Shown here: positions 15,699-62,338 of the stretch, piece by piece
How positions within the stretch are numbered: position 1 is the stretch's first letter
Layout: every line of letters begins with the position of its first letter
NCBI GenBank assembly: GCA_964373175.1
Contig: CAYJTP010000004.1
Location: forward strand, 6,651 to 70,650
Source of the DNA: an uncultured Planctomycetales bacterium
GTDB lineage: Bacteria; Omnitrophota; Gorgyraeia; Aquiviventales; Aquiviventaceae
Direction: 5' to 3'
Length of the DNA: 64,000 nt
The notes under the pieces: model-generated
Told to the model about the DNA's origin: nothing
The model's database searches: none
The model's input: only the letters and a program-made list of their open reading frames with translations
Position numbers and translations under genes: made by a program

Positions 15699-16042
15699 CA
15701 TCGCGAGGCGCCACCCAGCAGTTCTTTGGCGGCTTCTTCAAGGCCAGAGAGCTTGTGCTGAACAACATCCCACACGACCTCAACGTTGATGCCGAAATAT
15801 TCATGGATTAAGATGTCCCGTAATCCGGCGATCTTTCTCCACTCGATATGAGGCTTCCGGCTGCGGGCATCCTCCGGCAGACGCTTCACGGCTTCGCCAA
15901 TGACTTCGAGATTCCGGACCACGGCATCCAACGTTTTCGCATCGTTCGACAGGGCGGCGACGGACATACCGCCTGTGAATTCCCGAATCTTTCGAATCGC
16001 CTCAAGGATGTCTTCGAGATAGACCTGAGGGTCCCGTGGCAT
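15698..16042 (-). CDS. hepT: HepT-like toxin (DUF86 / RX4HXY nuclease) of a HepT/MntA type II TA pair
   Basis: …[23 protein letters not shown]… contains the R-x4-H-x-Y motif. ~110 aa, immediately downstream of the cognate nucleotidyltransferase gene. Confidence 0.85.
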
Positions 16043-16322: not shown

Positions 16323-16338
16323 CGCATCATCTCCTCAC

Positions 16339-21252: not shown

Positions 21253-22367
<1,115 letters not shown>

Positions 22368-22898: not shown

Positions 22899-22904
22899 TA
22901 CGGC

Positions 22905-23045
22905 CTCACTTCGTTCGGCCGAGTGACAAGTGATAGGTGATGAGTGACGAGGAAAAACCGATCGGGCATCATCAGTTTTGGAAACTGTTACTAATGGCTT
23001 GTTAGATTGGTTCAATTCTCAATCTATCACTTATCATCCATCACC
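22905..23045. repeat. Inverted pair of GTGAYRRGTGA-type units (agtgacaagtgataggtgatgagtgac … tcacttatcatccatcaccgatcactg) flanking an AT-rich 60-nt core
   Basis: Seen directly between the ilvN stop and the membrane-protein gene. The motif resembles the IRs flanking the four-helix-bundle cassette at 26695-27120. Confidence 0.5.
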
Positions 23046-25304: not shown

Positions 25305-25395
25305 GTGATGATCCCTTCACGCTTGCCCGCCCCCCCGGCCCGCCGCGAGCGACAGCCGGGGCGGGCAGCGATAGCGAAAGGCGGGCCGGGGAGGC
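25305..25395. mobile_element. Partial, inverted copy of the TIR element core (the ccccccggcccgccg…gacagccggggcgggc… segment), immediately 5' of the ilvB start
   Basis: gcccgcccccccggcccgccgcgagcgacagccggggcgggcagcgatagcgaaaggcgggccgggg is approximately the reverse complement of the interior of the copies at 28479-28706 and 34447-34600. Confidence 0.5.
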
Positions 25396-25735: not shown

Positions 25736-25930
25736 CGGAACGGCCCGTCAAGGAGCGCCGCGTCTTACGGGCTAGGGGCTTGAGGCAGCGGCCGGGGTCG
25801 TGCGGCGACCCCGCCATCGGGCCACGGCCTTCGGCCGTAGGCCCGCGCTGCTTCTTCAAACGCGGGGGCGGGATGTCGCCCCCCCGGCCCGACGCTGGCG
25901 CGAGCCGGGGCGGGCAGGTGGAGCGTGGTA

Positions 25931-26694: not shown

Positions 26695-27120
26695 GTTTCG
26701 TGACCCGTGATTCGTGGCTCGTGACCCGTCAGAGACTATGAATGAGTCTGACAAGCATGCGAGTTTCGTGGTTCACGGCTTCTGCGATGATCTGCATTTG
26801 CGGTGGATGCACATATCTCCTTCTTTGAGCGATAATCAACAATGTGTCCAACTCAGCACACGAACCTAACGAGACGTAAAGATGCTGCTGGTACTCCTTG
26901 GTATGGTGCCTGACAAAGCCTTCAGCGATATTCGTTGGGATTGACACGGCCGCACGTCTCATCTGACTGCTTAACCCATACATCTCCGATTGCGGAAAAG
27001 TCTCTGTCAGTTCGTAAACCAGACCGACGATTTCAACACCTTTTTGCCACACTTGAAGATCTTTATAGTCCTTCACCTTCATCGGCAGTTTACGGATCAC
27101 GGGTCACTGGTCACGAGTCA
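26695..27120. mobile_element. Low-GC cassette carrying a four-helix-bundle gene, flanked by inverted repeats built from GTGACCCGTGA units
   Basis: Left flank ttcgtgacccgtgattcgtggctcgtgacccgtcag. Right flank cggatcacgggtcactggtcacgagtcacggc, which is the reverse-complement arrangement. The enclosed gene is ~48% GC against ~62% for its neighbours. Confidence 0.55.
26729..27100 (-). CDS. Four-helix-bundle protein of the 23S rRNA intervening-sequence protein family
   Basis: 123 aa. …WQKGVEIVGLVYELTETFPQSEMYGLSSQMRRAAVSIPTNIAEGFVRHHTKEYQQHLYVSLGSCAELDT… matches this family as recalled. Confidence 0.7.
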   Translation of the reverse strand: MIRKLPMKVKDYKDLQVWQKGVEIVGLVYELTETFPQSEMYGLSSQMRRAAVSIPTNIAEGFVRHHTKEYQQHLYVSLGSCAELDTLLIIAQRRRYVHPPQMQIIAEAVNHETRMLVRLIHSL

Positions 27121-28478: not shown

Positions 28479-28706
28479 CCCCCCACCTGTCTTCCCCGGC
28501 CCGCCGATAGCCCTCGCCGCCCGCCCCGGCTGTCGCCGGCGTCGGGCCGGGGGGGCGGGCGGCCCGGAGGGCCAACCGCGTTTGGGTTCATGGGTTGATT
28601 CACCTTCGGTGAACCCCCACACCACCCCGCCATCGGCGGGGTGGCGTCGGGGGAGCGCCATTCGGGGCTTCCTGGTGTGGGGGTGAATAGACAGGTGGGG
28701 GGATCA
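28479..28706. mobile_element. MITE-like element copy 1 (~228 bp). Terminal inverted repeats GTCATCCCCCCACCTG … CAGGTGGGGGGATCAT, with a nested CCCCCACACC…GGTGTGGGGG palindrome and a CCACCCCGCCA..GGCGGGGTGG REP.
   Basis: It is directly adjacent to the thiL ATG (…cgcgtcat|ccccccacctgtcttcc…gaatagacaggtggggggatcat). The interior shares ~70 bp with copy 2 at 34447-34600 (ccggcccgccgatagccctcgccgYccgccccggctgtcgccggcgtcgggccgggggggcgggc). Confidence 0.65.
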
Positions 28707-34446: not shown

Positions 34447-34600
34447 CCCCCCACCTGCCTTCCCCCCCGGCCCGCCGATAGCCCTCGCCGTCCGCCCCGG
34501 CTGTCGCCGGCGTCGGGCCGGGGGGGCGGGCCGATCAAGCGTTGCGTCTCCTGTTGATTCACCTTCGGTGAATAGGCAGGTGGGGGGATCACGGGCTGTG
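34447..34600. mobile_element. MITE-like element copy 2 (~154 bp), same TIRs as copy 1, directly abutting the cysS ATG
   Basis: ggtcat|ccccccacctgccttcccccccggcccgccgatagccctcgcc…gattcaccttcggtgaataggcaggtggggggatcac. Confidence 0.65.
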
Positions 34601-35302: not shown

Positions 35303-35814
35303 GGTGGCGGTTCTCGTTTCCTCAAGGACGATCGGGGGGTGAGCAGGACGACCGCATGGGCCGCGATTCCACGCTTGCCGGGAGGCAGCCCCTCGGTCGT
35401 TTTCGCCTTGACCGAAACCGCGGAGGAGTCCACCTTGAGCAAGCGGCTAATCACCTGCCGCATCTGGGCCTTATACGGAGTCAACGTGGGTTCATCGGTC
35501 ACGACGGTCGCGTCCACGTTCCCGACGCAAAACCCGGCGCGATGGACTCGGCCGAGGGCCTGTTGCACAAACCAGCGGCTGTCCGTCCGCGTGTAGTGCG
35601 GATCGCTGGAGGGAAAAAGCTCGCCGAGATCCGGCGCGCCGATGGCACCCAAGAGCGCATCCGCGATGGCGTGGAGCAAGACATCCGCGTCCGAATGGCC
35701 AGAGAGTCCGCGAGCAGCCGGAATGACCACGCCACCGAGTTTCAACGGACGCCGACTGGCGTTAAAACGATGGCTATCGTAGCCAATGCCTATTCTCATT
35801 TCATGTCCCTTCAT
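35299..35814 (-). CDS. ispF: 2-C-methyl-D-erythritol 2,4-cyclodiphosphate synthase
   Basis: [12 protein letters not shown]…[19 protein letters not shown]… The probable start is the Met at ~35799. Confidence 0.9.
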
Positions 35815-35915
35815 TCAGAGGACAGAAGTCAGAAATCAGAAGACAGATCAACGCTAAACACACCGGAGGGTCTATTCTGATTTCTGTCCTCTGCCATCTG
35901 TCCTCTGGTACCTCC
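35815..35915. repeat. Heptamer-repeat element, copy e: inverted pair forming a long hairpin between ispD and ispF
   Basis: cagaggacagaagtcagaaatcagaagacaga…(loop)…tctgatttctgtcctctgccatctgtcctctg. Confidence 0.8.
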
Positions 35916-36669
35916 GCTTCAAGATCGCTTCTGCAAGTAGCAGATCTTCGCGGGTGGTGACCTTGATATTCAACGGATCCCCCGGCACCACATGAACCGG
36001 AAACCCGGCCCATTCCAGCAGGGCCGCGTCATCCCACCACCCGTCGCATCCGCCAAAGGCGGATCGATCGGCCCTTTGGGCCGAGCGACGAGTGGTGGGA
36101 TCATCCGGCATGGTCTCCAAGTGATGATCGACCCGCGCGAGTGTCTCTGCCAGCCAGTCTCGACGAAAAACCTGAGGCGTTTGCATGAACCAGAGGCTGT
36201 CTCGATCGAGGGTCAATCGAACCGTCGCGGCCTGATCGACGGCCTTCACGGTCACCGAGGCTGGCAAGCCGCACGCCACGGCTCCATAGCGCCGGGCCTG
36301 TGCAATCGTTGCCTGGATCAGACGTCGCGTGAGACACGGCCGAGCCCCGTCATGGACGAGAACCCATTGGGCCTTGGCAGGCAGTGCTGCCATCCCTCGG
36401 ATGACTGACTGGGCCCGCGTTGAGCCGCCGATGACAAGGGCCGTCACTTTCGTCAGCCGATGGCGTCGCACGAGACGCTGCATCGCGGCGCGATCCGCTC
36501 GGCGGACAGCCACCACAATCCACCGAATCGCCGGGGTCACCTCAAGCGCCTTGAGGGGGTGGAGGATGAGCGGCTGTCCCGCGAGCGTGATGAAGGCTTT
36601 CGAGGTCGGCCCTCCCAGGCGCATTCCTTGCCCCGCGGCAGGAATCACGGCTCCAACGTTCCGGACCAT
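35872..36669 (-). CDS. ispD: 2-C-methyl-D-erythritol 4-phosphate cytidylyltransferase carrying an in-frame ~26-aa insertion and a heptamer-encoded C-terminal tail
   Basis: MVRNVGAVIPAAGQGMRLG… conserved IspD blocks through …NIKVTTREDLLLAEAIL. Insertion PDDPTTRRSAQRADRSAFGGCDGWWD between …HLETM and DAALLEWAGF (E. coli has …TITDEASALEYCGF…). Confidence 0.85.
   Translation of the reverse strand: MVRNVGAVIPAAGQGMRLGGPTSKAFITLAGQPLILHPLKALEVTPAIRWIVVAVRRADRAAMQRLVRRHRLTKVTALVIGGSTRAQSVIRGMAALPAKAQWVLVHDGARPCLTRRLIQATIAQARRYGAVACGLPASVTVKAVDQAATVRLTLDRDSLWFMQTPQVFRRDWLAETLARVDHHLETMPDDPTTRRSAQRADRSAFGGCDGWWDDAALLEWAGFPVHVVPGDPLNIKVTTREDLLLAEAILKRRYQRTDGRGQKSE
36031..36101. mobile_element. Miniature TIR element (GTCATCCCACCAC … GTGGTGGGATCAT) with internal CCGCCAAAGGCGG and GGCCCTTTGGGCC hairpins, inserted in frame inside ispD
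   Basis: gtcatcccaccacccgtcgcatccgccaaaggcggatcgatcggccctttgggccgagcgacgagtggtgggatcatcc. It has the same terminal motif and the same GTCAT/ATGAT end asymmetry as the elements at 25419, 28479 and 34447. Confidence 0.7.
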
Positions 36670-37914: not shown

Positions 37915-39273
37915 TCAGGTGAGCGACGCCTGCACGGCCTCGCGAACGTTGCGCACCCCGACGACCTCAAGACCATCCGCCTGGATGGCGTGCTTCGAGG
38001 CCGCCACGAGGCACCGACGAAAACCCACCCGCTTCGCCTCGTGAAGCCGCTGGGCGAGATTGATGACAGGCCGAACTTCGCCGGTCAACCCCACCTCACC
38101 GATCGCGACATCCGTCCGGGCATTCGCCCGCTCCTTGAGGCTGGAGGCAATCGCCAGGGCCATCGCGAGATCGCAGGCAGGCTCCACCACCCGCACCCCA
38201 CCCAGCGATGAGACAAACACGTCCTGCTGGGCGAGCTGCGGCAGGCCGGCGCGCCGCTCGAGCACCGCCAACAACACGCTCACCCGATTAAAATCCACCC
38301 CGCTCGCTTTTCGACGGGGGAACCCCATGGTACACGGCGCCGTGAGGGCCTGAAGCTCGACCAGCAGCGGACGGCTCCCCTCGAGGCTCACCGTGACCAT
38401 GCAGCCGGGGGCTTGGTCGGTCCGATCACTCACGAAGAGCTCCGAGGGATTCGACACCTCGACCAGGCCCTCGCTCGTCATATGGAAGACGCCCAGCTCC
38501 GAGGTCTGGCCGAAGCGGTTCTTGGTGGTGCGCAACAAACGAAACCCGCTGGTGGGTTCCCCTTCGAAGTAGAGGACCGTGTCCACCAGATGCTCCAAGA
38601 CCTTTGGGCCGGCCAGGAATCCTTCTTTCGTGACATGACCAACCAAAATCATCGTGCAGATCTGATTCTTGGCGAGGCGAACCAGGCGATGGGCGCAAGC
38701 CCGGACTTGACTGATCGATCCCGGGCTTGAGGACAGCTCCCCGGATTCCACGACTTGAATCGAATCTACGATCACCACGTGCGCGGCGGTGTTGCGAATG
38801 GCTTCCTCAATGGCTTCGAGGTGTGTCTGTGAGACCAGCTGAATCGCGGACTCCCCCAGTCCCAGTCGCAGGGCCCGGAGTTTCGTCTGCCGGAGGCTCT
38901 CTTCCCCACTGGCATACAGGACCCGCAAGCCAGTGGCCCCTAAGCGGCCCGCCATGGAGAGTAGCAGCGTCGATTTGCCGATGCCCGGCTCCCCACCCAC
39001 GAGAATCACCGAACCCGGGACCAACCCCCCGCCTAAGACCCGATCAAGCTCTCCAATCCCGGTCTGGATGCGGATCGTGTCGTCAAGCGGGACCTCCGCC
39101 AGGAGGGTTGGGGTCACGGGTTCTGCGGTGACGGTGGACGTCCGAGGGGCTTCCTCAACCACTTCTTCCACCAAGGTGTTCCACTCCCCACACCCGGGGC
39201 AGCGGCCCGCCCACTTGATGGCCTGACACCCACACTGTTGGCAGATGAAGACGGCTTTGAGCTTACTGGCCAT
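37915..39273 (-). CDS. radA: DNA repair protein RadA (Sms)
   Basis: N-terminal Zn finger CQQCGCQAIKWAGRCPGCGEW, RecA-like ATPase (GGEPGIGKSTLLL), KNRFG motif and C-terminal Lon-like domain. Confidence 0.95.
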   Translation of the reverse strand: MASKLKAVFICQQCGCQAIKWAGRCPGCGEWNTLVEEVVEEAPRTSTVTAEPVTPTLLAEVPLDDTIRIQTGIGELDRVLGGGLVPGSVILVGGEPGIGKSTLLLSMAGRLGATGLRVLYASGEESLRQTKLRALRLGLGESAIQLVSQTHLEAIEEAIRNTAAHVVIVDSIQVVESGELSSSPGSISQVRACAHRLVRLAKNQICTMILVGHVTKEGFLAGPKVLEHLVDTVLYFEGEPTSGFRLLRTTKNRFGQTSELGVFHMTSEGLVEVSNPSELFVSDRTDQAPGCMVTVSLEGSRPLLVELQALTAPCTMGFPRRKASGVDFNRVSVLLAVLERRAGLPQLAQQDVFVSSLGGVRVVEPACDLAMALAIASSLKERANARTDVAIGEVGLTGEVRPVINLAQRLHEAKRVGFRRCLVAASKHAIQADGLEVVGVRNVREAVQASLT

Positions 39274-39274
39274 G

Positions 39275-39372
39275 ACTTCGCGATCAGAAGACAGAGGTCA
39301 GAAGTCAGAGGACAGGCGCGGCCGAGCTTATTGGGTACCTGTCTTCTGTCGTCTGTCTTCTGTCTTCTGTCC
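39275..39372. repeat. Heptamer-repeat element, copy f: inverted pair or hairpin between mlaD and radA
   Basis: gatcagaagacagaggtcagaagtcagaggacagg…ctgtcttctgtcgtctgtcttctgtcttctgtcc. Confidence 0.8.
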
Positions 39373-40101
39373 CTTCGGACGGATCAGGAGTTTCCAGGGG
39401 TGTTCTCGGAGATCATCGACAAACAGGACGATGCGCTGGTAGAGATCCTCGTCAAACAGGAGCTTCCCGAGATTGCCTTCACCGCCTTCCGCGTGGTACA
39501 TCGCCACGTTGAGCCGTTCGCCCAACAACCGCCACTGCCGTGTCGCATCCCGAGCCTCCTGCAAGGCCTCTTTGAGATAGATGCGCGCTTCGGGGTCCCC
39601 GACCAGCGCATTCAACCCTTCCAGGGCTCGCTTAAACTCGGTGAGGACTTCGTTGGACCGTTGGATGACTTGTTCGGTGGACACCGGGGGTCTGCCGATC
39701 AACAGATCCGTGGCTTTGACGAGCGCTCCGGTCCCAGCCCCGGGGATGATCTCGAGGTATTTCTCCCCTAACAACCCAAACGTGCTGATGGCGGCGATGT
39801 CGTCCGTCCGAATCTGCAGCCGGCGGGGCACGCGCGCGATCAATTCGACCTTGGGCCGCGAGGGATCCGATGGATAGATGATCCGCACATCCTCGACCTT
39901 GCCCACTTCGACCCCAGCGTACTGCACCGGAGAGCCCCGCGCGATCCCGTTGGCCGCGTCAAACACGACGTGCAACGTCAGCCCGGGCTGGAAGTAGGTC
40001 GCCAGGTCCCCGATGGCAAACAGAAACACCACCAGCATGACCATCCCCGAGATGATGAACGCCCCCACCTTCATCTCGAGTGACACGACCCGTTGCTGCA
40101 T
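39328..40101 (-). CDS. mlaD: MCE-family protein MlaD (outer-membrane lipid asymmetry maintenance) with a heptamer-encoded C-terminal tail
   Basis: TM helix plus MCE domain (…VVFDAANGIARGSPVQYAGVEVGKVEDVRI…). Ends …[21 protein letters not shown]. The preferred start is the Met at ~40101, adjacent to the mlaF stop. Confidence 0.8.
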   Translation of the reverse strand: MQQRVVSLEMKVGAFIISGMVMLVVFLFAIGDLATYFQPGLTLHVVFDAANGIARGSPVQYAGVEVGKVEDVRIIYPSDPSRPKVELIARVPRRLQIRTDDIAAISTFGLLGEKYLEIIPGAGTGALVKATDLLIGRPPVSTEQVIQRSNEVLTEFKRALEGLNALVGDPEARIYLKEALQEARDATRQWRLLGERLNVAMYHAEGGEGNLGKLLFDEDLYQRIVLFVDDLREHPWKLLIRPKGQKTEDRRQKTGTQ

Positions 40102-40919: not shown

Positions 40920-41007
40920 CCGCCTACCTAGGGGGCAAGGGACGAGAGACGTGGGGCGAGGAACTGGAAATCCCCACGCCCCTTGACCCCCGCCCCGCCC
41001 CCCGTCT

Positions 41008-48401: not shown

Positions 48402-49583
48402 TTATTCATAGCGCAATGCTTCAACCGGCGACAGCCTCGCCGCCTGACGAGCGGGGTAGACCGTCGCGACCAGGCTGATCACAAACGCCGCCAAGACCGT
48501 CATGCTCCAATCGGACCATTCGATGCGAACCGGCAAGTGGTCCAGGTAGTAGATGGTGCTGGGCAGATGGATGAACTGATAGGTATCGAGCAGCCACACA
48601 ATCCCCCACGCCCCCATCAACCCACAGCCGGTTCCGATGAGCCCAATCACTACCCCCTGCCACGTGAAGATCCACCGGATTGATTGATTCGAGGCCCCGA
48701 TCGATTTGAGGATCCCGATGTCGCGGGTCTTCGCAATCACCATCATGATCAACGTCGAGACGATATTCGCTGCGGCCACGATGACGATCAGGGTCAGAAT
48801 CACAAACATCGTCAGCTTCTCAAGCTTCAAGGCATCAAAGAGCGTCTGGTTGAGCTCCATCCACGTCTTGACCAAGTAGCGGCGCCCGAGTTCGCTGGTT
48901 AACCGGGCTTTGACTTCCTCAGCGCGTTCGAGTCGATCCAGTCGAATGGCTAAGCCGCTGACTGCGTCAGACAACCCGAACAGCGCTTGCGCGCGCGGGA
49001 TGGTGACACCCACGAGGCTTGCGTCGTACTCATACATCCCGGAGCGAAAGATCCCGCTCACCACCAGCTCATGCAGCTTGCCATCCGCTGGACTGATCAA
49101 CCGCAACGGCTCACCCAGACCAGCCCCAATGTAGCGGGCCAGCTCCGTCCCAATGACGACCTCGCGATCGGAGGTGGGCAGATGCCCCATGACGAGATAG
49201 TCCCGCAGCTTGCTCACGCGGACTTCCCGCTCGACGTCCAGGCCCCGCACCATGACCCCGAAGGCCCGGTCGGGCAGCCGGATGATCGCCTGGCCGAGCA
49301 CAAACGGGCTCACCCCCGCCACATGTTCGGTCGCCGCCACCCGTCGGATCAACGACTCGACCTCCTGAATACCTGGCTCTGACTCAATGGTCAGATGGGC
49401 ATTGGCCCCAACCAATTTTTCTTTGAGGTCGTGGTCAAACCCGCTCATCACCGAGAGAACAACCAACAGCGCCATGACCCCAAGCGCGACCCCGCCGATG
49501 GACAACAACGTGATGACCGACACAAACCGCTCACGCCGTCGCGTGAGCAGATACCGCACACTCAACCACAGTTCGTAGCGCAT
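48402..49583 (-). CDS. lolC: Lipoprotein-releasing system permease LolC/LolE (FtsX/MacB-like)
   Basis: N-terminal TM, large periplasmic MacB-like domain, C-terminal FtsX 3-TM bundle (…ILKSIGASNQSIRWIFTWQGVVIGLIGTG…). Confidence 0.85.
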   Translation of the reverse strand: MRYELWLSVRYLLTRRRERFVSVITLLSIGGVALGVMALLVVLSVMSGFDHDLKEKLVGANAHLTIESEPGIQEVESLIRRVAATEHVAGVSPFVLGQAIIRLPDRAFGVMVRGLDVEREVRVSKLRDYLVMGHLPTSDREVVIGTELARYIGAGLGEPLRLISPADGKLHELVVSGIFRSGMYEYDASLVGVTIPRAQALFGLSDAVSGLAIRLDRLERAEEVKARLTSELGRRYLVKTWMELNQTLFDALKLEKLTMFVILTLIVIVAAANIVSTLIMMVIAKTRDIGILKSIGASNQSIRWIFTWQGVVIGLIGTGCGLMGAWGIVWLLDTYQFIHLPSTIYYLDHLPVRIEWSDWSMTVLAAFVISLVATVYPARQAARLSPVEALRYE

Positions 49584-49628
49584 CTCAGACTTCAGACATG
49601 AGACAAGAGACTAGAGACATGAGACTTA
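49577..49628. repeat. Heptamer-repeat element, copy g
   Basis: tctcagacttcagacatgagacaagagactagagacatgagactt, between the lolC start and the low-GC membrane gene. Confidence 0.75.
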
Positions 49629-50066
49629 AAACCGAAAATAAGTCGAGAGAGAAAAGAGAAATGCGATGACAACAGAAATTGGAACCACGAATCCCGCTAG
49701 ACCGTATAAACGCGAAAGAGGTTCTCCCATCCTTTGTTCCACCAGTCGGACTTCCTCAAGAAAGAATCTAAGTTGAAAGGAGGGATTGTACAGATACCAT
49801 CCTTTTAACAGCCGAGCGTTTGCTGTCCATGCAGACCACATTTTCAGCCAAAACGCTACGACAACTACGACAGGAGACAGCATAACCCAAACAAACCACA
49901 AGGGGGGCGGCCTGTTTCGAAAAACCAAAGACGCAGTCAGAATGGAACACCCAAACATGATGTAAGCAAGCAAATAAAGCACAAGTTGCCAGCGCTTCCA
50001 ATGCATTGCCTCAAAAAATATTCGTGCTAATTCACGTGCGAGCGTTCTCCTGTCAGTTTCTGGCAT
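49626..50066 (-). CDS. Hypothetical small membrane protein in a low-GC (~45%) gene. Probably horizontally acquired.
   Basis: 146 aa with 3-4 hydrophobic helices (…LVLYLLAYIMFGCSILTASLVF…, …LWFVWVMLSPVVVVVAFWL…). Composition differs strongly from the flanking lolC and lysS. Confidence 0.5.
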   Translation of the reverse strand: MPETDRRTLARELARIFFEAMHWKRWQLVLYLLAYIMFGCSILTASLVFRNRPPPLWFVWVMLSPVVVVVAFWLKMWSAWTANARLLKGWYLYNPSFQLRFFLEEVRLVEQRMGEPLSRLYGLAGFVVPISVVIAFLFSLSTYFRF

Positions 50067-50073
50067 TTGCAGG

Positions 50074-51582
50074 TCACTCAGGTTTCAACAAGGGAAATAA
50101 AATCACATCCTTGATTGAAGGCTGGTCGAACAAGAGCATCGCTAATCGGTCGACCCCAAGGCCCAACCCTGTGGCCGGCGGCATGCCGTATTCCAGTGCC
50201 TCAAGAAAGTCTTCGTCAACCATTCGGGGGGGCGAGGGGCGTGGGGCACGGGGCGAGGATCGGGTTTTCCCTCGCCCCCGGTCTCCCGCCCCCTGCCCCT
50301 GTTCCTTTAATTGCGCTTCAAACCGTCGTCGCTGCTCAATCGGATCATTCAATTCCGAGTAGGCGTTGGCGACCTCAAAACCCCCGATGAACAGCTCAAA
50401 CCGCTCCGCGATGAGTGGGTTGTCCAGCCGGCTTTTCGCCAAGGGTGAGAGCTCGGTCCAGTAGTCCGTCACAAAGACCGGCACGTCCTTGGTCTTGGGT
50501 TCCACGAGCTGCTCCACGACATGGAGGATCTGGGAGCGTGTCTGGGCTTTGAGCTCGACCTTCGGAAATCCCGACTTCGGCGCTTTCAACTTGCGCTGCA
50601 TCGCTTCAAGTCCATCTTGAGGACCCAAGTCGTAGCCGGTCTTGAGCAGCTCAGTGAATGAGATGATTTCCCAGTCTTTGGCCAAATCGATTGCCTGGCC
50701 TTGATAGGTCAATTGCAACCGTCCCAGCGTGTGCGTCGCGGCCCCCCGGATGAGTTCTTGGACCAACTTCATCATGTACGTGTAGTCCTCATAGGCGCAG
50801 TAGGCTTCGAGCATCGTAAATTCAGGATTGTGTTTGGTGGAGAGCCCTTCGTTGCGAAACGATCGGTTGAGCTCATAGACCTTCTCAAAGCCGCCCACGA
50901 GCAGTTTCTTGAGATACAGCTCCGGAGCGAGGCGCAGATACAGCTCACACCCCAACGTCTGATGATGGGTGACAAACGGCTCGCCCGTCGCCCCGCCTGG
51001 GATCGGATGCATCATGGGCGTTTCGACCTCGAGGTAGCCGTGCGCGTTGAGCGTGGAGCGCAGGCTGTCAAGCAGCCGGGTGCGCTGCTCGAATGCCCGA
51101 CGGACGGGCTCATTCGCGATGAGATCCAGATACCGTTTGCGATAGCGGATCTCCACGTCGCGCAGCCCATGCCATTTCTCCGGCAGGGGTTTCAGCGACT
51201 TTGCCAGCAAGGTGAAGCGGCTGACCTGAATGGTGATCTCGCCGGTCTTGGTTTGGCACAACCGGCCTTCCACCCCAAGGCAATCCCCGAGATCGATGTT
51301 GTCAAAGAGCTGATAGGCGGCCTCGCCCAGTTGCTCTTGGCGAAGGCACAGTTGGATCTTGCCGCTTGCGTCACGAAGATCCGCGAAGGTGAGTGCGCCG
51401 TGAGAACGTTTGGCGCTCAGGCGACCGGCGGTCGTGACCGTTTCGCCGTCGTGGAAGTGCTCCACCAACCACTGGATGGATCGGGTCTTGGGAAACTTGC
51501 CCCCATATGGCTGGATGCCGTGTGAGCGCAACGTGTCGCGGTGCTTTCGTCGTGCGGCTGTAAGCTCATCATAGGTACCCAT
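50074..51582 (-). CDS. lysS: Lysyl-tRNA synthetase (class II) carrying an in-frame ~25-aa palindromic-element insertion near the C-terminus
   Basis: OB-fold anticodon-binding N-terminus, class II motifs (…FRNEGLSTKHNPEFTMLE…), then …RRRFEAQLKEQGQGAGDRGRGKTRSSPRAPRPSPPRMVDEDFLEALEYGMPPATGLGLGVDRL… E. coli has …[37 protein letters not shown]…. Confidence 0.95.
   Translation of the reverse strand: MGTYDELTAARRKHRDTLRSHGIQPYGGKFPKTRSIQWLVEHFHDGETVTTAGRLSAKRSHGALTFADLRDASGKIQLCLRQEQLGEAAYQLFDNIDLGDCLGVEGRLCQTKTGEITIQVSRFTLLAKSLKPLPEKWHGLRDVEIRYRKRYLDLIANEPVRRAFEQRTRLLDSLRSTLNAHGYLEVETPMMHPIPGGATGEPFVTHHQTLGCELYLRLAPELYLKKLLVGGFEKVYELNRSFRNEGLSTKHNPEFTMLEAYCAYEDYTYMMKLVQELIRGAATHTLGRLQLTYQGQAIDLAKDWEIISFTELLKTGYDLGPQDGLEAMQRKLKAPKSGFPKVELKAQTRSQILHVVEQLVEPKTKDVPVFVTDYWTELSPLAKSRLDNPLIAERFELFIGGFEVANAYSELNDPIEQRRRFEAQLKEQGQGAGDRGRGKTRSSPRAPRPSPPRMVDEDFLEALEYGMPPATGLGLGVDRLAMLLFDQPSIKDVILFPLLKPE
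50226..50302. repeat. GC-rich hairpin element (GGGGCGAGGGGCGTGGGGCACGGGGCGAGG … CCTCGCCCCCGGTCTCCCGCCCCCTGCCCC) inserted in frame in lysS
   Basis: Read directly. It is translated as QGQGAGDRGRGKTRSSPRAPRPSPP. Related non-coding copies at ~20920-21000, ~31330-31400, ~40925-41000 and ~19250-19320. Confidence 0.75.
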
Positions 51583-51812: not shown

Positions 51813-53381
51813 TTACGTTGTCCTAACCCTGTGTTTGACGAGGGGTTGGAACCAGAGCCATCCAAAGGCCACCACAAGACACAGCCACGCAAACCAGTCT
51901 CCCCACCTGGCATACAGGGTGTGAGACTGACTCGGCTGCACGTCGCAGACCGAAAACCCCTCAACAAAGAGCTCCTTGCCCTTCGAGTTCTGGACGCTGG
52001 CCTGCCAACGGCCGGTTTCATCAATGCAGCCGGACCAGCCGGTGTTGGCCGCACGGATCATCGGCACGCGCAGTTCCACGGCTCTGAACGCCGAGGCTTG
52101 TGCATGCTGGTACGCGGCCGCCGTATCGCCAAACCACGCGTCGTTGGTGATCGTAACCAACATCTGAGCTCCCCGGTTGACAAATTGTCGAGCCAACCCT
52201 GGGAAGATGTCTTCGAAACAGATCAACACACTAAAGCGGGGCGGGGGGCGGGGGGCGGGGGGCGGGGAAACCAACTCATGCCCGTGCCCCACGTCTCTCG
52301 CCCCATGCCCCTCCACGTCAAATACGGTGTACTCATGGCCTGGCACAAAGTTGCCGATCGGCGGCAAGACTCCCCGCAGCCACGGAAAGACTGACTCCAG
52401 AGGGATGAATTCCCCGAAAGGCACCAGATGAAGCTTGTCGTACCGTGTCAGGATGGCTCCCTCGGCATCCAGCAACACGGCGCTATTCGTCAGATACCAC
52501 GTGCCGTCCCGCAAGACACCCATCGGCGCACCGACCAACAAGGGCGTCTGGATCGATTGGGCCAATTGCTTGATCTGCATCGTCATCTGAGCATCTAAAC
52601 CAACATAGCCGGGTACCGAGGTTTCCGGCCACACGATAAGCTGCGGGTGGTGGCGAGCCGCTTCGTGCGTGAGCCGTTCATAGCGCTCAACAATGGACTG
52701 CTGAAACGCCTCGTCCCATTTTTCCTCTTGGGGGATGTTGCCTTGGACGACGGCGATCTTGAGCGGTGTGGTGGGAACAAACTGCTGAAGACGCGCTTTG
52801 CCATACGCCCAGCTTGCAACCACACAACCAAGTGCCAGGGTCATCATGGGAATGACGCGGTGCGCCTCACGCTGGCTCAGATAGCTCGCAATCGCCACAT
52901 TCACCATGACCAGCAGAAACGACACGCCCCAGACACCAGTTACGTCAGCGACTTGGATGGCCGTCAATGCTGGTGTCTGCGAATAGCCCAGGAGGTTCCA
53001 TCCAAAACCCGAGAGGAGATGACTACGCAGGTACTCAAGCGCAACCCACGCAGAGGGAATAAGAAGGTGATGGGTGATGGGTGATGGGTGATGGGTGAAC
53101 TTATGAGCGAGCCAGCCAAATACGCCGAAAAAGAGCGCGAGGTATGCGCAGAGCAGGGTCAATCCCACAAGCGTCACATGCACAAGCCACCAAATGGTGC
53201 CAAGGAAAAACACAAGCCCGACGAGATACGACCAGCCAAATGCTTGCCGCGGGCTCAGCGTCTGCAGACTGATCAGCCATGGGACCAGCGCCACCCACGC
53301 GCACCACGGCTGGTTCCAGTTCGGGAAAGAGAGAGCCAGCAGGACGGCGCTACTCAGCGCCAGGAGGAGCGATTGCAACAC
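51813..53381 (-). CDS. lnt: Apolipoprotein N-acyltransferase carrying an in-frame ~23-aa GC-rich element insertion in the CN-hydrolase domain
   Basis: N-terminal multi-TM region plus CN hydrolase domain (…IAVVQGNIPQEEKW…, …VLICFEDIFP…). Insertion …VFDVEGHGARDVGHGHELVSPPPAPRPPPRFSVLICFE… The start is read as GTG at 53379-53381. Confidence 0.85.
   Translation of the reverse strand: MLQSLLLALSSAVLLALSFPNWNQPWCAWVALVPWLISLQTLSPRQAFGWSYLVGLVFFLGTIWWLVHVTLVGLTLLCAYLALFFGVFGWLAHKFTHHPSPITHHLLIPSAWVALEYLRSHLLSGFGWNLLGYSQTPALTAIQVADVTGVWGVSFLLVMVNVAIASYLSQREAHRVIPMMTLALGCVVASWAYGKARLQQFVPTTPLKIAVVQGNIPQEEKWDEAFQQSIVERYERLTHEAARHHPQLIVWPETSVPGYVGLDAQMTMQIKQLAQSIQTPLLVGAPMGVLRDGTWYLTNSAVLLDAEGAILTRYDKLHLVPFGEFIPLESVFPWLRGVLPPIGNFVPGHEYTVFDVEGHGARDVGHGHELVSPPPAPRPPPRFSVLICFEDIFPGLARQFVNRGAQMLVTITNDAWFGDTAAAYQHAQASAFRAVELRVPMIRAANTGWSGCIDETGRWQASVQNSKGKELFVEGFSVCDVQPSQSHTLYARWGDWFAWLCLVVAFGWLWFQPLVKHRVRTT
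52237..52316. repeat. GC-rich element (GGCGGGGGGCGGGGGGCGGGGGGCGGGG … CCCGTGCCCCACGTCTCTCGCCCCATGCCCCTCC) inserted in frame in lnt
   Basis: Read directly. It is translated as EGHGARDVGHGHELVSPPPAPRPPP. Same GGGGCRNGGGGCAC family as the lysS element. Confidence 0.7.
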
Positions 53382-53391
53382 GACTCGACGC

Positions 53392-53679
53392 TTAGGGATG
53401 CCAGATAAGGCGCTGAACCGGAACAGCGTAGACGTCCTTCCGATGTCCGATGGTGATAATCCACACCGTGTGGCTTTCGATGCGGTAGATGATCCGATAA
53501 TTTCCTACTCGAAGCTTCCAGTAGCCTTTCAATTGGTGTCGTAGCGGCTCTCCGTAATAGGCAGGCTCGAGGGCGAGCCGCTGCTCGAGGGCCCGTTGAA
53601 TGCGATCGCGAATGTCACGGTTAAGACGAGGGAGGTCTTCCCGCAGGACGGCAGGATGGTACGACAGCCGGTAGGGCAT
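53392..53679 (-). CDS. relE: RelE/ParE-family type II toxin
   Basis: MPYRLSYHPAVLREDLPRL…LKGYWKLRVGNYRIIYRIESHTVWIITIGHRKDVY… Its start overlaps the antitoxin stop by 1 nt (TGATG). Confidence 0.8.
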   Translation of the reverse strand: MPYRLSYHPAVLREDLPRLNRDIRDRIQRALEQRLALEPAYYGEPLRHQLKGYWKLRVGNYRIIYRIESHTVWIITIGHRKDVYAVPVQRLIWHP

Positions 53680-53927
53680 TACCGGCGTCGCGTGCGGCGC
53701 CGTCCCCAGACTTCTTCGTGGGTCAGTGCGGTCTTTCGATCGAAGGTGGTCCAACGCGCATGGGCGGCCTTGGCCCAGTACGCATCTTCGTGCAATTCAA
53801 GCGCCTCACGGATCAAGTCACGGGCCTTCAGCGACAGCGAGACCTTGTCACGGGCCGCAAGTCGCGCGACGGAACGGAACGTCGGTGGCTCTAAGACAAC
53901 ATTCAATCGGGGTCGTTTTGTCGGCAT
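53679..53927 (-). CDS. Type II antitoxin, ribbon-helix-helix (RelB/ParD/CopG-like)
   Basis: 82 aa. N-terminal beta strand plus helices (RLNVVLEPPTFRSVARLAARDKVSLSLKARDLIREALE). Positioned and coupled with relE. Confidence 0.65.
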   Translation of the reverse strand: MPTKRPRLNVVLEPPTFRSVARLAARDKVSLSLKARDLIREALELHEDAYWAKAAHARWTTFDRKTALTHEEVWGRRRTRRR

Positions 53928-53978
53928 CGAGTCTCACCTCCGCAATGAGTGTATCAGAAGTGATGAACTCTGTCAACA

Positions 53979-54062
53979 CGCGCACCACGGCTGGTTCCAG
54001 TTTGGAAACGAGAAAACGAGGAGGACGGCGTTACTCAGCGCCAAGAGAGGCGGTCGTCTCAA
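53979..54062 (-). pseudogene. Diverged duplicate of the lnt 5' end (first ~27 codons), on the far side of the relBE cassette
   Basis: gcgcaccacggctggttccagtttggaaacgagaaaacgaggaggacggcgttactcagcgccaagagaggcgg is ~85% identical to 53299-53378 (gcgcaccacggctggttccagttcgggaaagagagagccagcaggacggcgctactcagcgccaggaggagcg). It translates to RRPPLLALSNAVLLVFSFPNWNQPWCAC*. The lnt N-terminus is MLQSLLLALSSAVLLALSFPNWNQPWCAW…. Confidence 0.8.
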
Positions 54063-54111
54063 GGAGGAATTAGGGGGCGTCGGCGTAGGCAATCGTGGCG
54101 TATCCCGTGGA

Positions 54112-54168
54112 ACATTCAGTCTCTTGTCTCATGTCTGACATCTGTCCTCTGTCGTCTGACATCTGATT
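54112..54168. repeat. Heptamer-repeat element, copy h
   Basis: cagtctcttgtctcatgtctgacatctgtcctctgtcgtctgacatctg, immediately 3' of secA. Confidence 0.75.
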
Positions 54169-54172
54169 CCAA

Positions 54173-57100
54173 TCACTTCCCATGACACTTCTTGTACTTG
54201 AGGCCACTCCCGCATGGACAGGGGTCATTTCTTCCGACCTTCGGACCGGCGCGATGGTAGGGTGTGCCTTGTGATTGGTCGTTCTTCGCCCCTACTGGTT
54301 CAAGCACGCGTCGTGGCTGCTCGGCTTCGCTGGATGGCGTGGGAGGCGTTTGCGGCGCAAACCGATCCGCTAATCGCGTCGAGAGCTCTTCATGAACGGC
54401 CTGCTGGGGCGTACGGGCAAACACGCTCACAGGTTGGGCCTCAGCTCGTGGTTGGATGCGCAGGAGCATCATGAGCGATTCGGCTTTGACCGAGGCGATC
54501 ATATCCTGGAACATCGCGTAGGCTTCATGCTGGTATTCGACGAGCGGGTCGCGCTGGCCATAGGCTCGAAGGCCGATGCCTTCCCGGAGCGCATCCATCA
54601 TGTAGAGGTGATCCTTCCACTTCGCATCGACGACGGCCAGCAGGACACTGCGCTCTAGGCTCCGCATCAGCTCAGGGCCGATGGCCTGCGCCTTGGCCTG
54701 ATAGGCCTGCTTCAGGCTCTCGCTGAGCTGCTCGAAGAGCGCGTCACGGACAGGCGACGTGAGGTCAATGGATTGGGTCACGACGAACTGCCGCACGAGG
54801 GTCGTACGCAGGCCCTCCAGATCCCAGGCGTCCGGACGCGACTCTTTGGGGGCGTAACTCGTCACCAACTCATCGGCCACTTCCTCAGCGATCTCCCCGA
54901 CCAAGGTGTCCAGCCCAACCCCATCGAGGATGCGGCGCCGCTGCTCATAGATGACTTCGCGCTGGCGATTCATGACGTTGTCGTACTCCAAGAGATGCTT
55001 GCGCGCATCGAAGTTCTGGGCCTCGACCCGTCGCTGGGCGGTCTCGATCGACTTGGTCACCCACGGATGCTCAATCGGTAATCCCTCCTCCCAGCGAAAC
55101 CACTTGAACTCCATGAGCTTCGCAATCCGATCCGAACCGAAGATGCGCATGAGGTCGTCTTCGAGCGAGAGGTAGAACCGCGAGGAACCGGGATCGCCCT
55201 GCCGGCCGGATCGCCCGCGCAGCTGGTTATCGATGCGGCGGGCTTCGTGGCGCTCGGTCCCGAGGACATGCAGGCCTCCGACGGCAACGACCTTCTCGTG
55301 CTCGTCATCGGCTTGGCGCCGATACTGTTCAAGCAGCGCGCCTCGGTCCTCGTCAGACGCCGCGGTCCCTTGCGCTTCTCGCTCGCGGATGGCGTCCTCG
55401 CAGAGAAATTGGGGATTGCCGCCCAGGAGGATGTCGGTGCCGCGACCCGCCATGTTCGTCGCGATCGTCACCGCCCCCAGCCGCCCGGCCTGCGCGACGA
55501 TGCGCGCTTCTTGCTCGTGGTACTTGGCGTTGAGCACGTTATGCGGGATTCCTGTTTTGACGGCGGTCATCGTCTGGACGAGTCGCAGGAGTTGTTCCAG
55601 ACGATAGACCATGAGGGACTTGGGGGCTTGCGACTTGAGCTGGTCCAAGAGGACTGTCGCCGCCTCCTCGGTGATGGTCCCGGGGCGGCTCGCGAGCTGC
55701 GAGAGCTGCTGCTTGAGCGGTCCAGGAAGCTGTTCGGATTTCAGTTCCTCGGTCACCCACTGGCAGATCGTACTCAGCCGTTTGAGGAACGGGCCTGGTT
55801 CTTTGAGCATCCGCGAGAGCCGCTCGGATTTCTCAATCGAAATGGTTCCCACCAGGACGGGCTGGCCCCTGCGATGGAGCTCAGCAATTTCTTCCACCAC
55901 GGCGAGGAACTTTTCCGCTTCGGTCTTGTAGACGATGTCGGGGTGGTTAGCGCGGATGAGCTGGCTGTTGGTCGGAATGGTGACGACGTCGAGGTGGTAG
56001 ATCTCGCGAAACTCCTGCGCTTCAGTGGCGGCCGTACCGGTCATGCCGGCCAATTTCTCATACATCCGGAAGTAGTTCTGGAAGGTCACCGAGGCGAGGG
56101 TCTGGTTTTCTTCGCGGATCCGGACGTTTTCTTTCGCTTCGATCGCTTGATGGAGCCCATCGCTCCAGCGGCGGCCCGGCATGAGCCGACCCGTGAACTC
56201 ATCGACAATGATGATCTCCCCGTCCTTGACCATGTAGTCCACATCGCGCTTGAACAGCTCGTGAGCGCGCAGGGCCTGGTTGATGTGATGCACCAGGCGC
56301 ATGTTCAGCTCGTCATAGAGGTTCTCCACCCCAAGGAGCTCTTCAGAGTGCTTGATCCCATCCTCGGTGAGGGTCACCGCATGTTGCTTCTCGTCGACCT
56401 CGTAGTGGGTGCCTTTGGTCAAGCGCTCAACCACCTTGTCCAACCGGTAGTACAGCTCGGTGGACTCCTCGGCGGGTCCGGAGATGATCAGGGGGGTGCG
56501 CGCTTCATCAACCAGGATGCTGTCGACCTCATCGACAATCGCAAAGTGAAACTCCCGTTGGACAAGATCCTCGCGGCGATGGCGCATGTTGTCGCGCAGG
56601 TAATCAAAACCGAACTCGTTGTTCTGCCCGTAGGTGATCTCCGCGGCGTAGGCGGCCCTTCGGCTGACCGGTCGCAGGTGGATGAAGCGCTCGGAGGCCT
56701 GGGTGAAGGTCGGATCGTAGAGGAAGGAGAGGGATTCCTCGCCGGCCAGACGCTCGGCGGGGTCCACGCCTTGGATGACCCCGACGGACAATCCCAGGGC
56801 ATGGTAGATCGGCCCCATCCAGCGCGTGTCGCGTCGTGCCAGATAGTCGTTGACCGTCACGATATGGACCCCGCGACCCGTCAAGGCATTGAGGTACGCT
56901 GCCAACGTGGCCACAAGGGTTTTCCCTTCCCCGGTGGCCATCTCGGCGATCTTGCCCTCATGGAGCGCCATGCCCCCAAGGAGCTGGACATCGAAGTGGC
57001 GCATGTTGACGGTCCGACGAGCCGCTTCACGCACTACGGCAAAGGCTTCAGGGAGGAGCTCGTTGAGCGCTCGATCCTGGATCTTGCGCCGCTCCTGCCT

Positions 57101-57349
57101 GCGTTTCAGTCGCTCATCATGGCCAAGCTCATACCACTCGGGGCTGCTCGGATCAATAAACTGGAAGGACTCAAGAGATTTGCGCAGGCGGGCTCGCAGC
57201 TCCTCGGTTTTGGCGCGTAACTGGTCGTCGGAGAGCTTCTGGACATCTGGCTCAAGGCGATTAATGCGCTCGACCACGGGTGCGAGCCGCTTGAGCTCCC
57301 GTGCGCTCTGCGTCCCGAGCAGCTTTTGGAGAATCCACGTGACCATCAT
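54173..57349 (-). CDS. secA: Preprotein translocase subunit SecA
   Basis: DEAD-like motor motifs (…[20 protein letters not shown]…), preprotein cross-linking domain, and C-terminal zinc-binding [14 protein letters not shown]. 1058 aa. Confidence 0.95.
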
Positions 57350-57408
57350 CAGATGACAGACATCAGACCACAGACGTCAGACGACAGAAAACAGAGGACA
57401 GAACATGG
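57348..57408. repeat. Heptamer-repeat element, copy i
   Basis: catcagatgacagacatcagaccacagacgtcagacgacagaaaacagaggacagaac, between the prfB stop and the secA start. Confidence 0.75.
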
Positions 57409-60796: not shown

Positions 60797-62338
60797 TTAT
60801 TGTCCGCCGGAGGCGGATCCGCCCCTCGCCTTGAACGAGAGGGCGGAGGATTTGGTGATTGGTGATTGCGACAGTTGTTGGACAAGTGCTCTGGCGTTGG
60901 GTTCAGAAATACGTGCCACCCTGGCAATCTCCGAAAGGCTCGCGTGCTTGAGGCGATCAACCGACCCGAAGTGGGCAAGGAGCGCACGGGCTCGCCGGGG
61001 GCCGATGCCGGAAATCTCCTCAAGCGCAGAGCAGCTCATGGGCTTCCCCCGCAATCGCCGATGGTAGGCAATAGCAAACCGGTGCGCTTCGTCGCGGATG
61101 CGCTGGATCAAGTGCAAGACGGGTGAGGTGGGCAGCAAGACAATCGGATGTGGCTGATCCGGCAGAAAAATTTCCTCGTGCTGTTTGGCCAATCCCAAAA
61201 TCGGCAGGGCCGGATGGAGCGACGCGAGCTCCTCGCGCGCGGCATTCAACTGCCCCCGCCCGCCATCGACGAGGATGAGATCCGGCTGTGGCAGCTCGGT
61301 GGCAAGCGAACCGCTGTAGCGGCGCCGAATCACCTCGCCCATCATGGCGCAGTCATCTCCGCCCCAGCGTTCAGCGCGCGGGGCGGATCCGCCCCCTGAC
61401 TTGGACGGGCGGGCGGAGATGCCTGCCACTGTTTCGATCTTGAAGCGGCGGTAGTGGCGTTTGAACGGCTTGCCTTCCACAAAGGTCACCAGGGATCCGA
61501 CCGCAAAGGTCCCGGAGATGTTGGAGATATCAAACGCCTCGATCCGACGGGGGAGCACGGGAAGCTTCAACGCCACCTGGAGCTGTTCCAGGGGACCGGC
61601 GTGGGCGGATTTCTCCTTCGCGACGATCACCGAGGTCAATGCCTGGATCTGATCGCGCAGCCTGGCGGCTTCTTCGAATCGTTGCGCCCGCGAGGCCTGG
61701 GCCATGCGCTTCGAGAGCTCCCGCAGCAGATCATCCCGCTTGCCTTCCAGGAAGGCGAGGAGATCGTCGACGATCCGCTGGTAGGCAGCCTCATCAAGAT
61801 ATCCCACACAGGGCGCCAGGCACTGCCCCAGGTGGTATTCCAGACACGGCGTCTTGGGGAAGGTGCGGCACGTCCGAAGCGGAAAGACCCGCCGCATGAA
61901 CTGCAGGGCGTGGCGCAGCAGCCCGGCATCCACATACGGGCCAAAATAGCGCGCGCCATCCGGTCTGCGAGAGCGCGTCACGATCAGCCGCGGAAACGGT
62001 TCGTTGGTGAGTTTCAAGAGAGGAAAACTTTTATCATCCCGGTAGGCCACGTTGTATTTCGGCTGGTGCGCCTTGATGAGTTGAGACTCCAGGAGCAAGG
62101 CCTCGGCTTCCGACGCGGTGGCCCGCACCTCCAGATCGCTGATCCATTGGACGAGGCGGGTGATGCGCGGGGAAAGATCGCGTGAGGCGTGGAAATAGGA
62201 ACTGACGCGCTTGCGAAGACTCAGGGCTTTGCCGACGTACAGGACCTCCCCCTGCGCGTTTTTGAAGAGGTAGACGCCCGGCTGATCAGGTAACGTGGTT
62301 AGGCGCCTGCCTGCCGCGCCTCTGAGGGGTATAGTCAT
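60797..62338 (-). CDS. uvrC: Excinuclease ABC subunit C. The preferred start is ATG at 62336-62338, overlapping the murJ stop as ATGA.
   Basis: GIY-YIG (PDQPGVYLFKNAQGEVLYVGKALSLRKRVSSYF), UvrB-interacting UVR motif (FEEAARLRDQIQAL), RNase-H-like endonuclease domain, (HhH)2 (ISGIGPRRARALLAHFGS). The last ~20 listed residues are encoded by a REP copy. Confidence 0.9.
   Translation of the reverse strand: MTIPLRGAAGRRLTTLPDQPGVYLFKNAQGEVLYVGKALSLRKRVSSYFHASRDLSPRITRLVQWISDLEVRATASEAEALLLESQLIKAHQPKYNVAYRDDKSFPLLKLTNEPFPRLIVTRSRRPDGARYFGPYVDAGLLRHALQFMRRVFPLRTCRTFPKTPCLEYHLGQCLAPCVGYLDEAAYQRIVDDLLAFLEGKRDDLLRELSKRMAQASRAQRFEEAARLRDQIQALTSVIVAKEKSAHAGPLEQLQVALKLPVLPRRIEAFDISNISGTFAVGSLVTFVEGKPFKRHYRRFKIETVAGISARPSKSGGGSAPRAERWGGDDCAMMGEVIRRRYSGSLATELPQPDLILVDGGRGQLNAAREELASLHPALPILGLAKQHEEIFLPDQPHPIVLLPTSPVLHLIQRIRDEAHRFAIAYHRRLRGKPMSCSALEEISGIGPRRARALLAHFGSVDRLKHASLSEIARVARISEPNARALVQQLSQSPITKSSALSFKARGGSASGGQ

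Follow-up and report, generated by a model that had tools for sequence, protein, structure and literature searches.

In a 64-kb window of an Omnitrophota genome (the whole stretch of DNA analysed here, taken from contig CAYJTP010000004.1), two toxin-antitoxin (TA) modules each lie between two copies of one end of a neighbouring housekeeping gene. A RelE/ParE-type pair directly before lnt, the gene for apolipoprotein N-acyltransferase, is bracketed by copies of the lnt 5' end, and an MntA/HepT pair next to the chorismate synthase gene aroC is bracketed by copies of the aroC 3' end. As the original prediction stated, each module is delimited by a second copy of the neighbour's terminus; apart from these repeats at lnt and aroC, no long direct repeats at close spacing occur in the window. 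The TA pairs at both sites are ordinary members of known families. The pattern also recurs at other loci, and we regard it as a real, recurrent footprint of TA gain or retention beside housekeeping genes, whose mechanism we infer from the borders of the repeats and from the gene order in relatives.

The lnt repeat and its RelE/ParE-type module

A repeat search identified a direct repeat between positions 53296-53371 and 53977-54052, which is 76 nucleotides (nt) long, 86% identical and ungapped, with a spacing of 681 nt. Read in frame, the similarity spans the region from the start codons (53381 and 54062) to codon 29, 76-86 nt in all. The alignment, with a 26-nt identical run (53977-54002, equal to 53296-53321) at the gene-interior end of the repeat, bears out the predicted lnt 5'-end duplicate around a relBE-like pair. 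Every gene in the window is on the minus strand, and on that strand the order is secA, heptanucleotide repeats, a 57-nt spacer, the truncated lnt 5' copy, the TA promoter, the antitoxin candidate, the toxin and lnt. The secA gene (54173-57349) is an open reading frame (ORF) of 1058 amino acids (aa), whose product is 70-82% identical to the SecA proteins in the conserved prfB-secA-lnt-lysS cluster of relatives. The heptanucleotide repeats (54120-54172) begin immediately 3' of the secA stop codon and are of the intergenic type native to this genome; the same flavour of repeat precedes several further genes in the window.

The functional lnt gene (51813-53381), which contains the LNT_N and CN_hydrolase domains of Pfam, carries one arm of the repeat at its 5' end (53296-53381), and its GTG start codon lies 10 nt past the toxin stop codon. 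The extra copy (53973-54062) consists of a TTG start and 28 further codons (MRRPPLLALSNAVLLVFSFPNWNQPWCAC), free of indels and internal stops. The stop codon at its end (TGT TGA) arises where the copy meets the TTGACA -35 box of the TA promoter. The premature stop had been taken as a sign of decay, a view that does not hold, as the junction itself makes the stop; the copy is truncated, and its decay is unproven. Divergence between the arms is uneven along the repeat: 10 of 72 nt differ in codons 6-29, compared with 9 of 15 nt in codons 1-5 (Fisher p = 4e-4). This unevenness fits two alleles with distinct start regions rather than a sequence copied in place. In a comparison of the extreme N-terminus with the closest relative (L183), the functional copy agrees with L183 in 11 of 15 nt and the extra copy in 8, a difference too weak to use. 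Of four short-read assemblies made independently for this organism, three (L082, L083 and L084) end at 53286, which is 10 nt beyond the repeat inside lnt. These breaks suggest a population polymorphism at this point, and an effect of the 26-nt repeat at k = 31, which we assume to be the usual Logan k-mer size, fits them poorly.

The toxin (53392-53679, 95 aa) scores above the cut-offs of two profiles, Pfam ParE_toxin PF05016 (45.8 bits, cut-off 23) and NCBIfam RelE/StbE TIGR02385 (32.7 bits, cut-off 27.9). The antitoxin candidate (53679-53927, 82 aa) overlaps the toxin start with its stop codon (TAATG) and is 70-83% identical to the ORF that precedes the toxin in relatives, where the two are kept together. 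It reaches 25.7 bits against the RelB-like model NF048017, below the cut-off of 50, and gave neither a Pfam hit nor a PDB sequence match. By profile, gene order and a promoter of its own, the pair is classed as a RelE/ParE-superfamily type II module with a predicted RelE-like or ParE-like activity. The predicted promoter (53948-53976; TTGACA-17 nt-TG-TACACT) matches the consensus at 10 of 12 positions, is the sole promoter-like site within 53200-54300, and is conserved in sequence in L085, L089 and L183. Its -35 box begins at the base adjoining the repeat. With this promoter-like site before the antitoxin, only 10 nt between the toxin stop and the lnt start, and no terminator-like site there, lnt is probably co-transcribed with the TA pair, which agrees with the proposal that lnt lies transcriptionally downstream of the module.

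The prfB-secA-lnt-lysS order is conserved across Omnitrophota, and comparison of this cluster reveals the relative age of its parts. In the closest relative, L183 (SecA 82%, Lnt 65%, LysS 72% and LolC 82% identical), secA is followed by the homologous promoter, the antitoxin, the toxin and then lnt, 7 nt past the toxin stop. The same succession of secA, homologous promoter, antitoxin and toxin is present in L089-L091 and L087; lnt starts 7-20 nt after the toxin stop in L183 and L089-L091, and one extra ORF precedes it in L087. No lnt duplicate was found in these TA-bearing relatives (L183, L089-L091 and L087). Since the nearest relatives share the TA-lnt unit without the duplicate, the unit appears to be older than the duplicate: judged from these gene orders, the old arrangement is TA-lnt, to which the truncated lnt copy is foreign, and lnt lay behind the TA pair well before the duplicate appeared. 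The idea that a recent insertion placed lnt downstream of the TA pair is therefore not supported.

The predicted empty site was also found. In L001 and L085, secA is directly followed by lnt with no TA genes between them, so that both parental arrangements, TA-bearing and empty, occur in the clade; in L002 an unrelated membrane-protein gene separates secA and lnt. Homologues of the toxin are few and at most 72% identical, and those with context are mostly in the same gene cluster, between secA and lnt (L089/L090/L091 and L087) or between prfB and secA (L085/L086), with L102 in another context. In L085 (3440-4290), prfB and secA flank the same RelE/ParE-type module; its toxin gene stops 1 nt short of the secA start, and two more small ORFs (55 and 48 aa) precede the module. 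No secA duplicate was found in L085.

The aroC repeat and its recurrence at other loci

The second repeat of the window (16334-16483 and 15547-15696) is also direct, 150 nt long and 79-80% identical, with a spacing of 787 nt. At this site, aroC is followed after 16 nt by MntA and HepT, and then by a duplicate of its last 47 codons, heptamers and the next gene. The last 145 nt of aroC (16339-17493) and a few further bases together form one arm (16334-16483). The MntA nucleotidyltransferase antitoxin (16002-16322) starts 16 nt past the aroC stop; it matches PF01909 and falls below the cut-off of NF047752. The HepT toxin (15698-16042) matches PF01934 with 106.9 bits, and the identities of Lnt, AroC, MntA and HepT are all supported by Pfam matches. 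The other arm corresponds to an intact 49-codon ORF (15552-15701), whose product corresponds to the AroC C-terminus and matches positions 344-381 of the chorismate synthase model; its ATG overlaps the HepT stop codon (ATGA).

The same structure is present in L098, a 1.2-kb contig from a different sample with 79% identity to the window; here the overlap is GTGA, and the small ORF, of 49-50 codons, lies at 720-872. Between the window and L098, the ratios of nonsynonymous to synonymous divergence (dN/dS) are 0.09 for MntA, 0.05 for HepT and 0.11 for the small ORF, at synonymous divergences (dS) of 1.1-1.4. A dN/dS of about 0.11, at a dS of about 1.4 for the small ORF, indicates a gene under purifying selection rather than a decaying relic, and the AroC-fragment ORF is probably translated into a small protein resembling the C-terminus of AroC as a mimic. 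The description of both duplicates as decayed consequently fails for aroC, where the ORF is intact and selected; for the lnt copy, truncation stands. The two aroC arms contain no indel and differ at 7, 1 and 20 first, second and third codon positions, respectively (p = 4e-5), with a 23-nt identical run in the middle of the repeat. When both copies from the window and from L098 were compared by parsimony, six sites grouped by copy type, five clustered sites grouped by genome and none supported the third grouping. These groupings indicate that the aroC duplication predates the split of the two organisms and that a short patch was later gene-converted.

About 50 nt on the minus strand (16334-16384), from the final 14 codons of aroC to the bases in front of mntA, are identical at 49 of 50 positions between the window and L098, whose loci are 79% identical overall. 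With the flanking genes saturated at synonymous sites, this identity suggests constraint at the nucleotide level, possibly from a promoter, an operator or an RNA element.

The original prediction expected the architecture to recur elsewhere, and it does so around MntA/HepT cassettes and in two further arrangements. A protein search placed HepT homologues of up to 88% identity in other contexts. MntA/HepT lies between lysS and lolC in L096, and downstream of ribE next to tRNA-Pro in L092-L095, where fragments of the tRNA-Pro gene are found upstream of MntA. We then compared the 700 nt on each side of 78 MntA/HepT cassettes, which are among the matches listed in a metagenome scan with HepT (at most 69% identity; the 80-88% homologues are outside this set). 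Direct repeats were counted at an E value of 1e-5 or better, with the inverted orientation as the control. Among these listed matches, direct repeats bracket 15 of the 78 cassettes and inverted repeats none, the best inverted match being 4e-4. The bracketing repeats differ by locus, and five of them correspond to the 3' end of the upstream gene: aroC (L098), a DUF6916 gene, an ABC permease gene, a FabH gene and a DUF3795 gene. In L161, the arms share 44 identical nt, and from there to the stop codon they differ at synonymous positions only (TCC GGC TGA versus TCA GGA TAA). In three of the five (L106, L126 and L175), the distal copies have differences spread evenly over codon positions (pooled p = 0.72) as well as indels, and by these marks appear to be decayed. 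The repeats at L109, L129/130, L131, L165 and L172-L174 may include some attC-like or other dispersed repeats that are not copies of the target. A self-comparison of 1.37 Mb of loci, for repeats of 40-400 nt lying 250-3000 nt apart, gave 35 direct and 5 inverted repeats.

Two of these loci stand out. A Nitrospirae genome (L037, 5055-6083) contains a truncated lnt 5' copy, a VapB-like small ORF, a PIN-domain toxin and then lnt; the copy spans about 100 nt, is 97% identical and has a 10-nt deletion. From its gene content, this locus is read as the architecture of the lnt finding with a different TA family (VapBC) in a different phylum. In an Omnitrophota genome (L011, 1749-3345), the interval from lnt to lysS holds two tandem MNT-HEPN pairs, and a 41-nt copy of the lysS promoter region stands before each of them (TTGACC-17 nt-TACGAT / TAAAAT).

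Origin of the gene-end duplicates

Among the large ORFs of the 64-kb window, the search for an integrase or transposase found only XerC (7988-8896), which is encoded beside topA and dprA and scores 343 bits against an equivalog cut-off of 335. The suggested trans-acting integrase thus has no candidate in the window apart from XerC. The bracketed 681 nt contain the two TA genes only, with no integrase inside or adjoining, and no terminal inverted repeats were found at the borders of the lnt repeat. No core common to the lnt and aroC repeats was detected (no shared sequence of at least 9 nt): the 26-nt run at the lnt borders shares no 9-mer with the aroC repeat, and the aroC run behaves like a gene-conversion patch. 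Three classes of element fit poorly. For a transposon or insertion sequence, there are no inverted repeats and no transposase, and the repeats are 76-150 nt long and diverged; for an integron cassette, the bounding repeat is lnt coding sequence, and integron-integrase models match only XerC, far below threshold; and for an integrase island, no integrase lies in or next to the element.

The best model, which we favour tentatively and with slightly less than half of our confidence, is a recombination scar between TA-bearing and TA-less forms of the locus, made by one homologous crossover and one illegitimate join. The RelE/ParE-type module would be an old resident directly upstream of lnt in this Omnitrophota lineage. 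The segment comprising secA, the spacer and lnt codons 1-29 would derive from a TA-less form in which secA and lnt are adjacent, and lnt codon 29 would have been joined illegitimately to the -35 box of the promoter in the TA-bearing form. At this join (53976/53977), lnt codons 1-29 meet the TA promoter, and the other arm runs on into intact lnt; the two sides of the join have no more than G or TG in common. DNA of one form would have recombined into the other, with either form as a possible recipient; depending on the recipient, the homologous crossover would lie in lnt or in secA, and the other join would be non-homologous. The route might be homology-facilitated illegitimate recombination; integration, by a single crossover, of a circular molecule with the TA genes and the gene end would be equivalent. 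The TA-bearing segment would bring its own gene terminus, and the displaced terminus would remain. Later short-patch gene conversion between the arms could produce the identical runs, which may mark either crossover or conversion. Survivors of toxin action would be the recombinants that keep the TA operon intact, which may explain why such scars collect beside TA modules. The window encodes DprA and a prepilin peptidase, with which DNA uptake is conceivable.

Several observations bear on this model. RecA strand exchange needs about 26 bp (PMC6382021), and the 26- and 23-nt identical runs match this length, which we count in favour of recombination. The third-position bias at aroC and the synonymous differences in L161 are as expected for two functional alleles, and the grouping of the aroC patch by genome is consistent with gene conversion between the arms. 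Homology-facilitated illegitimate recombination, described in naturally transformable bacteria, combines one homologous anchor with one microhomology join (PMC6382021). The loci described here resemble it in that one border lies in conserved homologous sequence (lnt or aroC), in that the other joins unrelated sequences (lnt codon 29 to the -35 box; the HepT stop to aroC codon -47), and in that identical runs of RecA strand-exchange length are present and an element-encoded enzyme is not.

A number of points weigh against this recombination model. To our knowledge, the described events of homology-facilitated illegitimate recombination delete or replace recipient DNA, whereas part of the anchor gene is duplicated here. 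The differences between the lnt arms in codons 6-29 fall 2/2/6 by codon position, which is not significant (p = 0.2). The presence of the TA family upstream of secA in L085 implies at least one move of the module, whatever the route. The near-identical arms in L037, L161, L172 and L173 and the promoter duplicate in L011 fit a true target duplication equally well. Furthermore, no genome above 65-67% Lnt identity was present in the collections searched and, apart from four short assemblies of the organism itself, no contig was identical to the window; with no closer genome, the parental alleles, the direction of the event and the microhomology at the junction are unreadable. A phylogenetic conflict test across the junction (SecA versus Lnt, LysS and LolC, with six relatives) placed L183 nearest on both sides, so that no conflict is detectable at such distance and the test has no resolving power.

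A broader reading, which we consider rather unlikely, is that, in uncultivated bacteria, TA modules as a rule retain one end of the adjacent essential gene as a homology handle for integrase-free excision, transfer and re-insertion beside that gene through host recombination. The toxin would remove recombinants that lose the module, and the aroC fragment would now be a translated and selected third gene of the MntA/HepT operon, encoding a 49-residue mimic of the AroC C-terminus.

Insertion of a mobile TA cassette into the first ~30 lnt codons and into the last ~50 aroC codons, with duplication of a 50-150 bp target, regeneration of the gene end and decay of the other copy, seems unlikely to us as the explanation of the window, and it is a serious rival for some of the metagenomic loci. 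The target-derived direct repeats at 15 of 78 listed cassettes against no inverted ones, the 35 direct against 5 inverted repeats in the 1.37 Mb, the 96-98% identity of the arms in L161, L172, L173 and L037, the decaying appearance of the distal copies in L106, L126 and L175, and the different intergenic site of the TA family in L085 all speak for it. However, the TA-lnt junction and the short toxin-lnt spacer are common to duplicate-free relatives, and a fresh insertion would have to recreate them by coincidence. Together with the lack of a shared core, this argues against the claim of a recent insertion into lnt by a dedicated, common integration mechanism. In addition, the similarity of the repeats stops at, or fades toward, the gene terminus rather than at arbitrary points, and the differences are synonymous in L161 and at aroC. 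We know of no bacterial insertion mechanism that gives variable target duplications of 20-150 bp, and our literature search found no such mechanism described for TA cassettes.

Site-specific integration by a tyrosine or serine recombinase acting in trans, with the 26-nt (lnt) and 23-nt (aroC) runs as attachment (att) cores and the gene end on the cassette as part of attP, as for islands directed at tRNA genes, icd or the dusA 5' end, is in our judgement very unlikely. It would account for the run of identity at that border of the lnt repeat which faces the gene interior, for the empty sites in relatives and for the tRNA-Pro fragments that flank related MntA/HepT cassettes, and islands inserted at the 5' end of dusA by dusA-specific integrases do regenerate the target gene end (PMC4482086). 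As in these and other gene-end-regenerating islands, for example at tRNA genes, the unit carries a replacement terminus, a displaced partial copy lies on its far side and empty sites exist. Yet such islands span kilobases, encode their own integrase and have one att core per family, whereas the units here are 0.6 kb, hold TA genes only, have no integrase in or beside them in a window whose sole recombinase is XerC, and share no 9-mer between the lnt and aroC sites. Moreover, the aroC run lies in mid-repeat and groups by genome as in gene conversion, and the targets elsewhere are unrelated genes.

Local rearrangement, either a tandem duplication of promoter, antitoxin, toxin and lnt codons 1-29 with deletion of the first TA copy or an ancient duplicate kept alike by gene conversion, is hardly probable: the arms are direct and 681 nt apart, and gene conversion at aroC makes similarity unreliable as a clock, but no toxin 3' relic was detected in front of the extra lnt copy (the alignment score was equalled by 281 of 500 shuffled sequences), the two copies are unrelated in codons 1-5 and in what lies upstream, a precise second deletion is required, and no TA-bearing relative retains a duplicate.

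Integron gene cassettes often carry TA modules. The cassettes described here resemble them in being small, largely promoter-poor, composed of one or two genes in one orientation and bounded by direct repeats, and in forming tandem arrays (L011). They differ in that the repeats copy the local target (gene ends, a tRNA gene or the lysS promoter) and change from site to site; they are not attC sites and have no integron integrase or attI nearby; L172 and L173 may be true integron arrays. Like chromosomal type II and type VII TA modules, the pairs lie between housekeeping genes and are present or absent among relatives. Insertions of MNT-HEPN pairs into conserved operons have been noted, and the part of that study considered here mentions neither gene-end duplicates nor an insertion route (PMC2701414). 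In the literature searched, whose coverage is incomplete so that a prior description is possible, no description of gene-end duplicates flanking TA cassettes was found.

Genomic context and implications

The window, from an Omnitrophota genome, represents a syntenic core region: a housekeeping block with murJ, uvrC, prfB, secA, lnt, lysS, lolCD, clpC, mla, radA, ispDF, cysS, metG, ilv/leu, aroE, aroC, aroK, dprA, topA, xerC and lipid A genes, and its nearest genomes are Candidatus Omnitrophota assemblies, the top Lnt match in any collection searched being 65-67% identical. Heptanucleotide runs (CAGAnGA / GAGACAn and their complements) occupy many of the short intergenic spaces right before start codons, at 11037-11135, 14172-14265, 15500-15546, 21316-21389, 35795-35921, 39264-39390, 49577-49632, 54120-54179 and 57343-57408. 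After secA, the relatives L085, L089 and L183 have heptanucleotide flavours of their own.

G+C-rich palindromic elements of 45-80 nt are dispersed in both orientations (1076-1125, 12609-12658, 25325-25394, 25877-25917, 28479-28560, 34450-34531 and 61349-61426), some of them in predicted ORFs or in long N-terminal extensions (thiL, cysS and uvrC). A palindromic element of about 75 nt, with matches in both orientations, is present within the coding sequences of lnt and lysS in related genomes and within lysS of the window (window 50228-50304 in lysS and 40932-41002; L096 870-948 and 2816-2889; L001 7042-7105 and 8837-8901). The Lnt and LysS proteins of the window contain Pro/Arg/Gly-rich stretches, which may correspond to palindromic inserts. 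The palindromic elements inserted in frame in Rickettsia genes are a reminiscent case.

Further small genes and a domain, all on the minus strand, are noteworthy in the window. The shikimate kinase encoded by aroK has a C-terminal DUF5678 domain (residues 183-230), and a 149-aa clan AA aspartic-protease-like ORF (12885-13334) lies about 130 nt downstream of aroK, the whole region spanning 12885-14181. This arrangement might represent another small cassette, the third in the window, attached to the 3' terminus of a gene of the shikimate pathway and in this case fused with it. A four-helix-bundle protein (TIGR02436) is encoded between tsaE and tsaB (26729-27100); we take it to be of the type present in 23S rRNA intervening sequences and related to Avd of diversity-generating retroelements. 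A 146-aa membrane protein with no Pfam match is encoded between lysS and lolC (49626-50066), where L096 has MntA/HepT, and a 170-aa ORF with no Pfam match lies between ilvN and ilvC (22503-23015); both are situated within conserved operons.

How TA modules move between genomes and resist loss is poorly understood, and the gene-end duplicates offer a readable footprint of recombination at such modules. If the pattern holds genome-wide, it would provide a simple, computable signature of the integrase-free gain, or failed loss, of addictive modules, and it would show that essential genes such as lnt can come under the lasting control of a TA promoter. In the conserved AroC-fragment ORF, a gene fragment made by recombination would have been recruited as a small protein.

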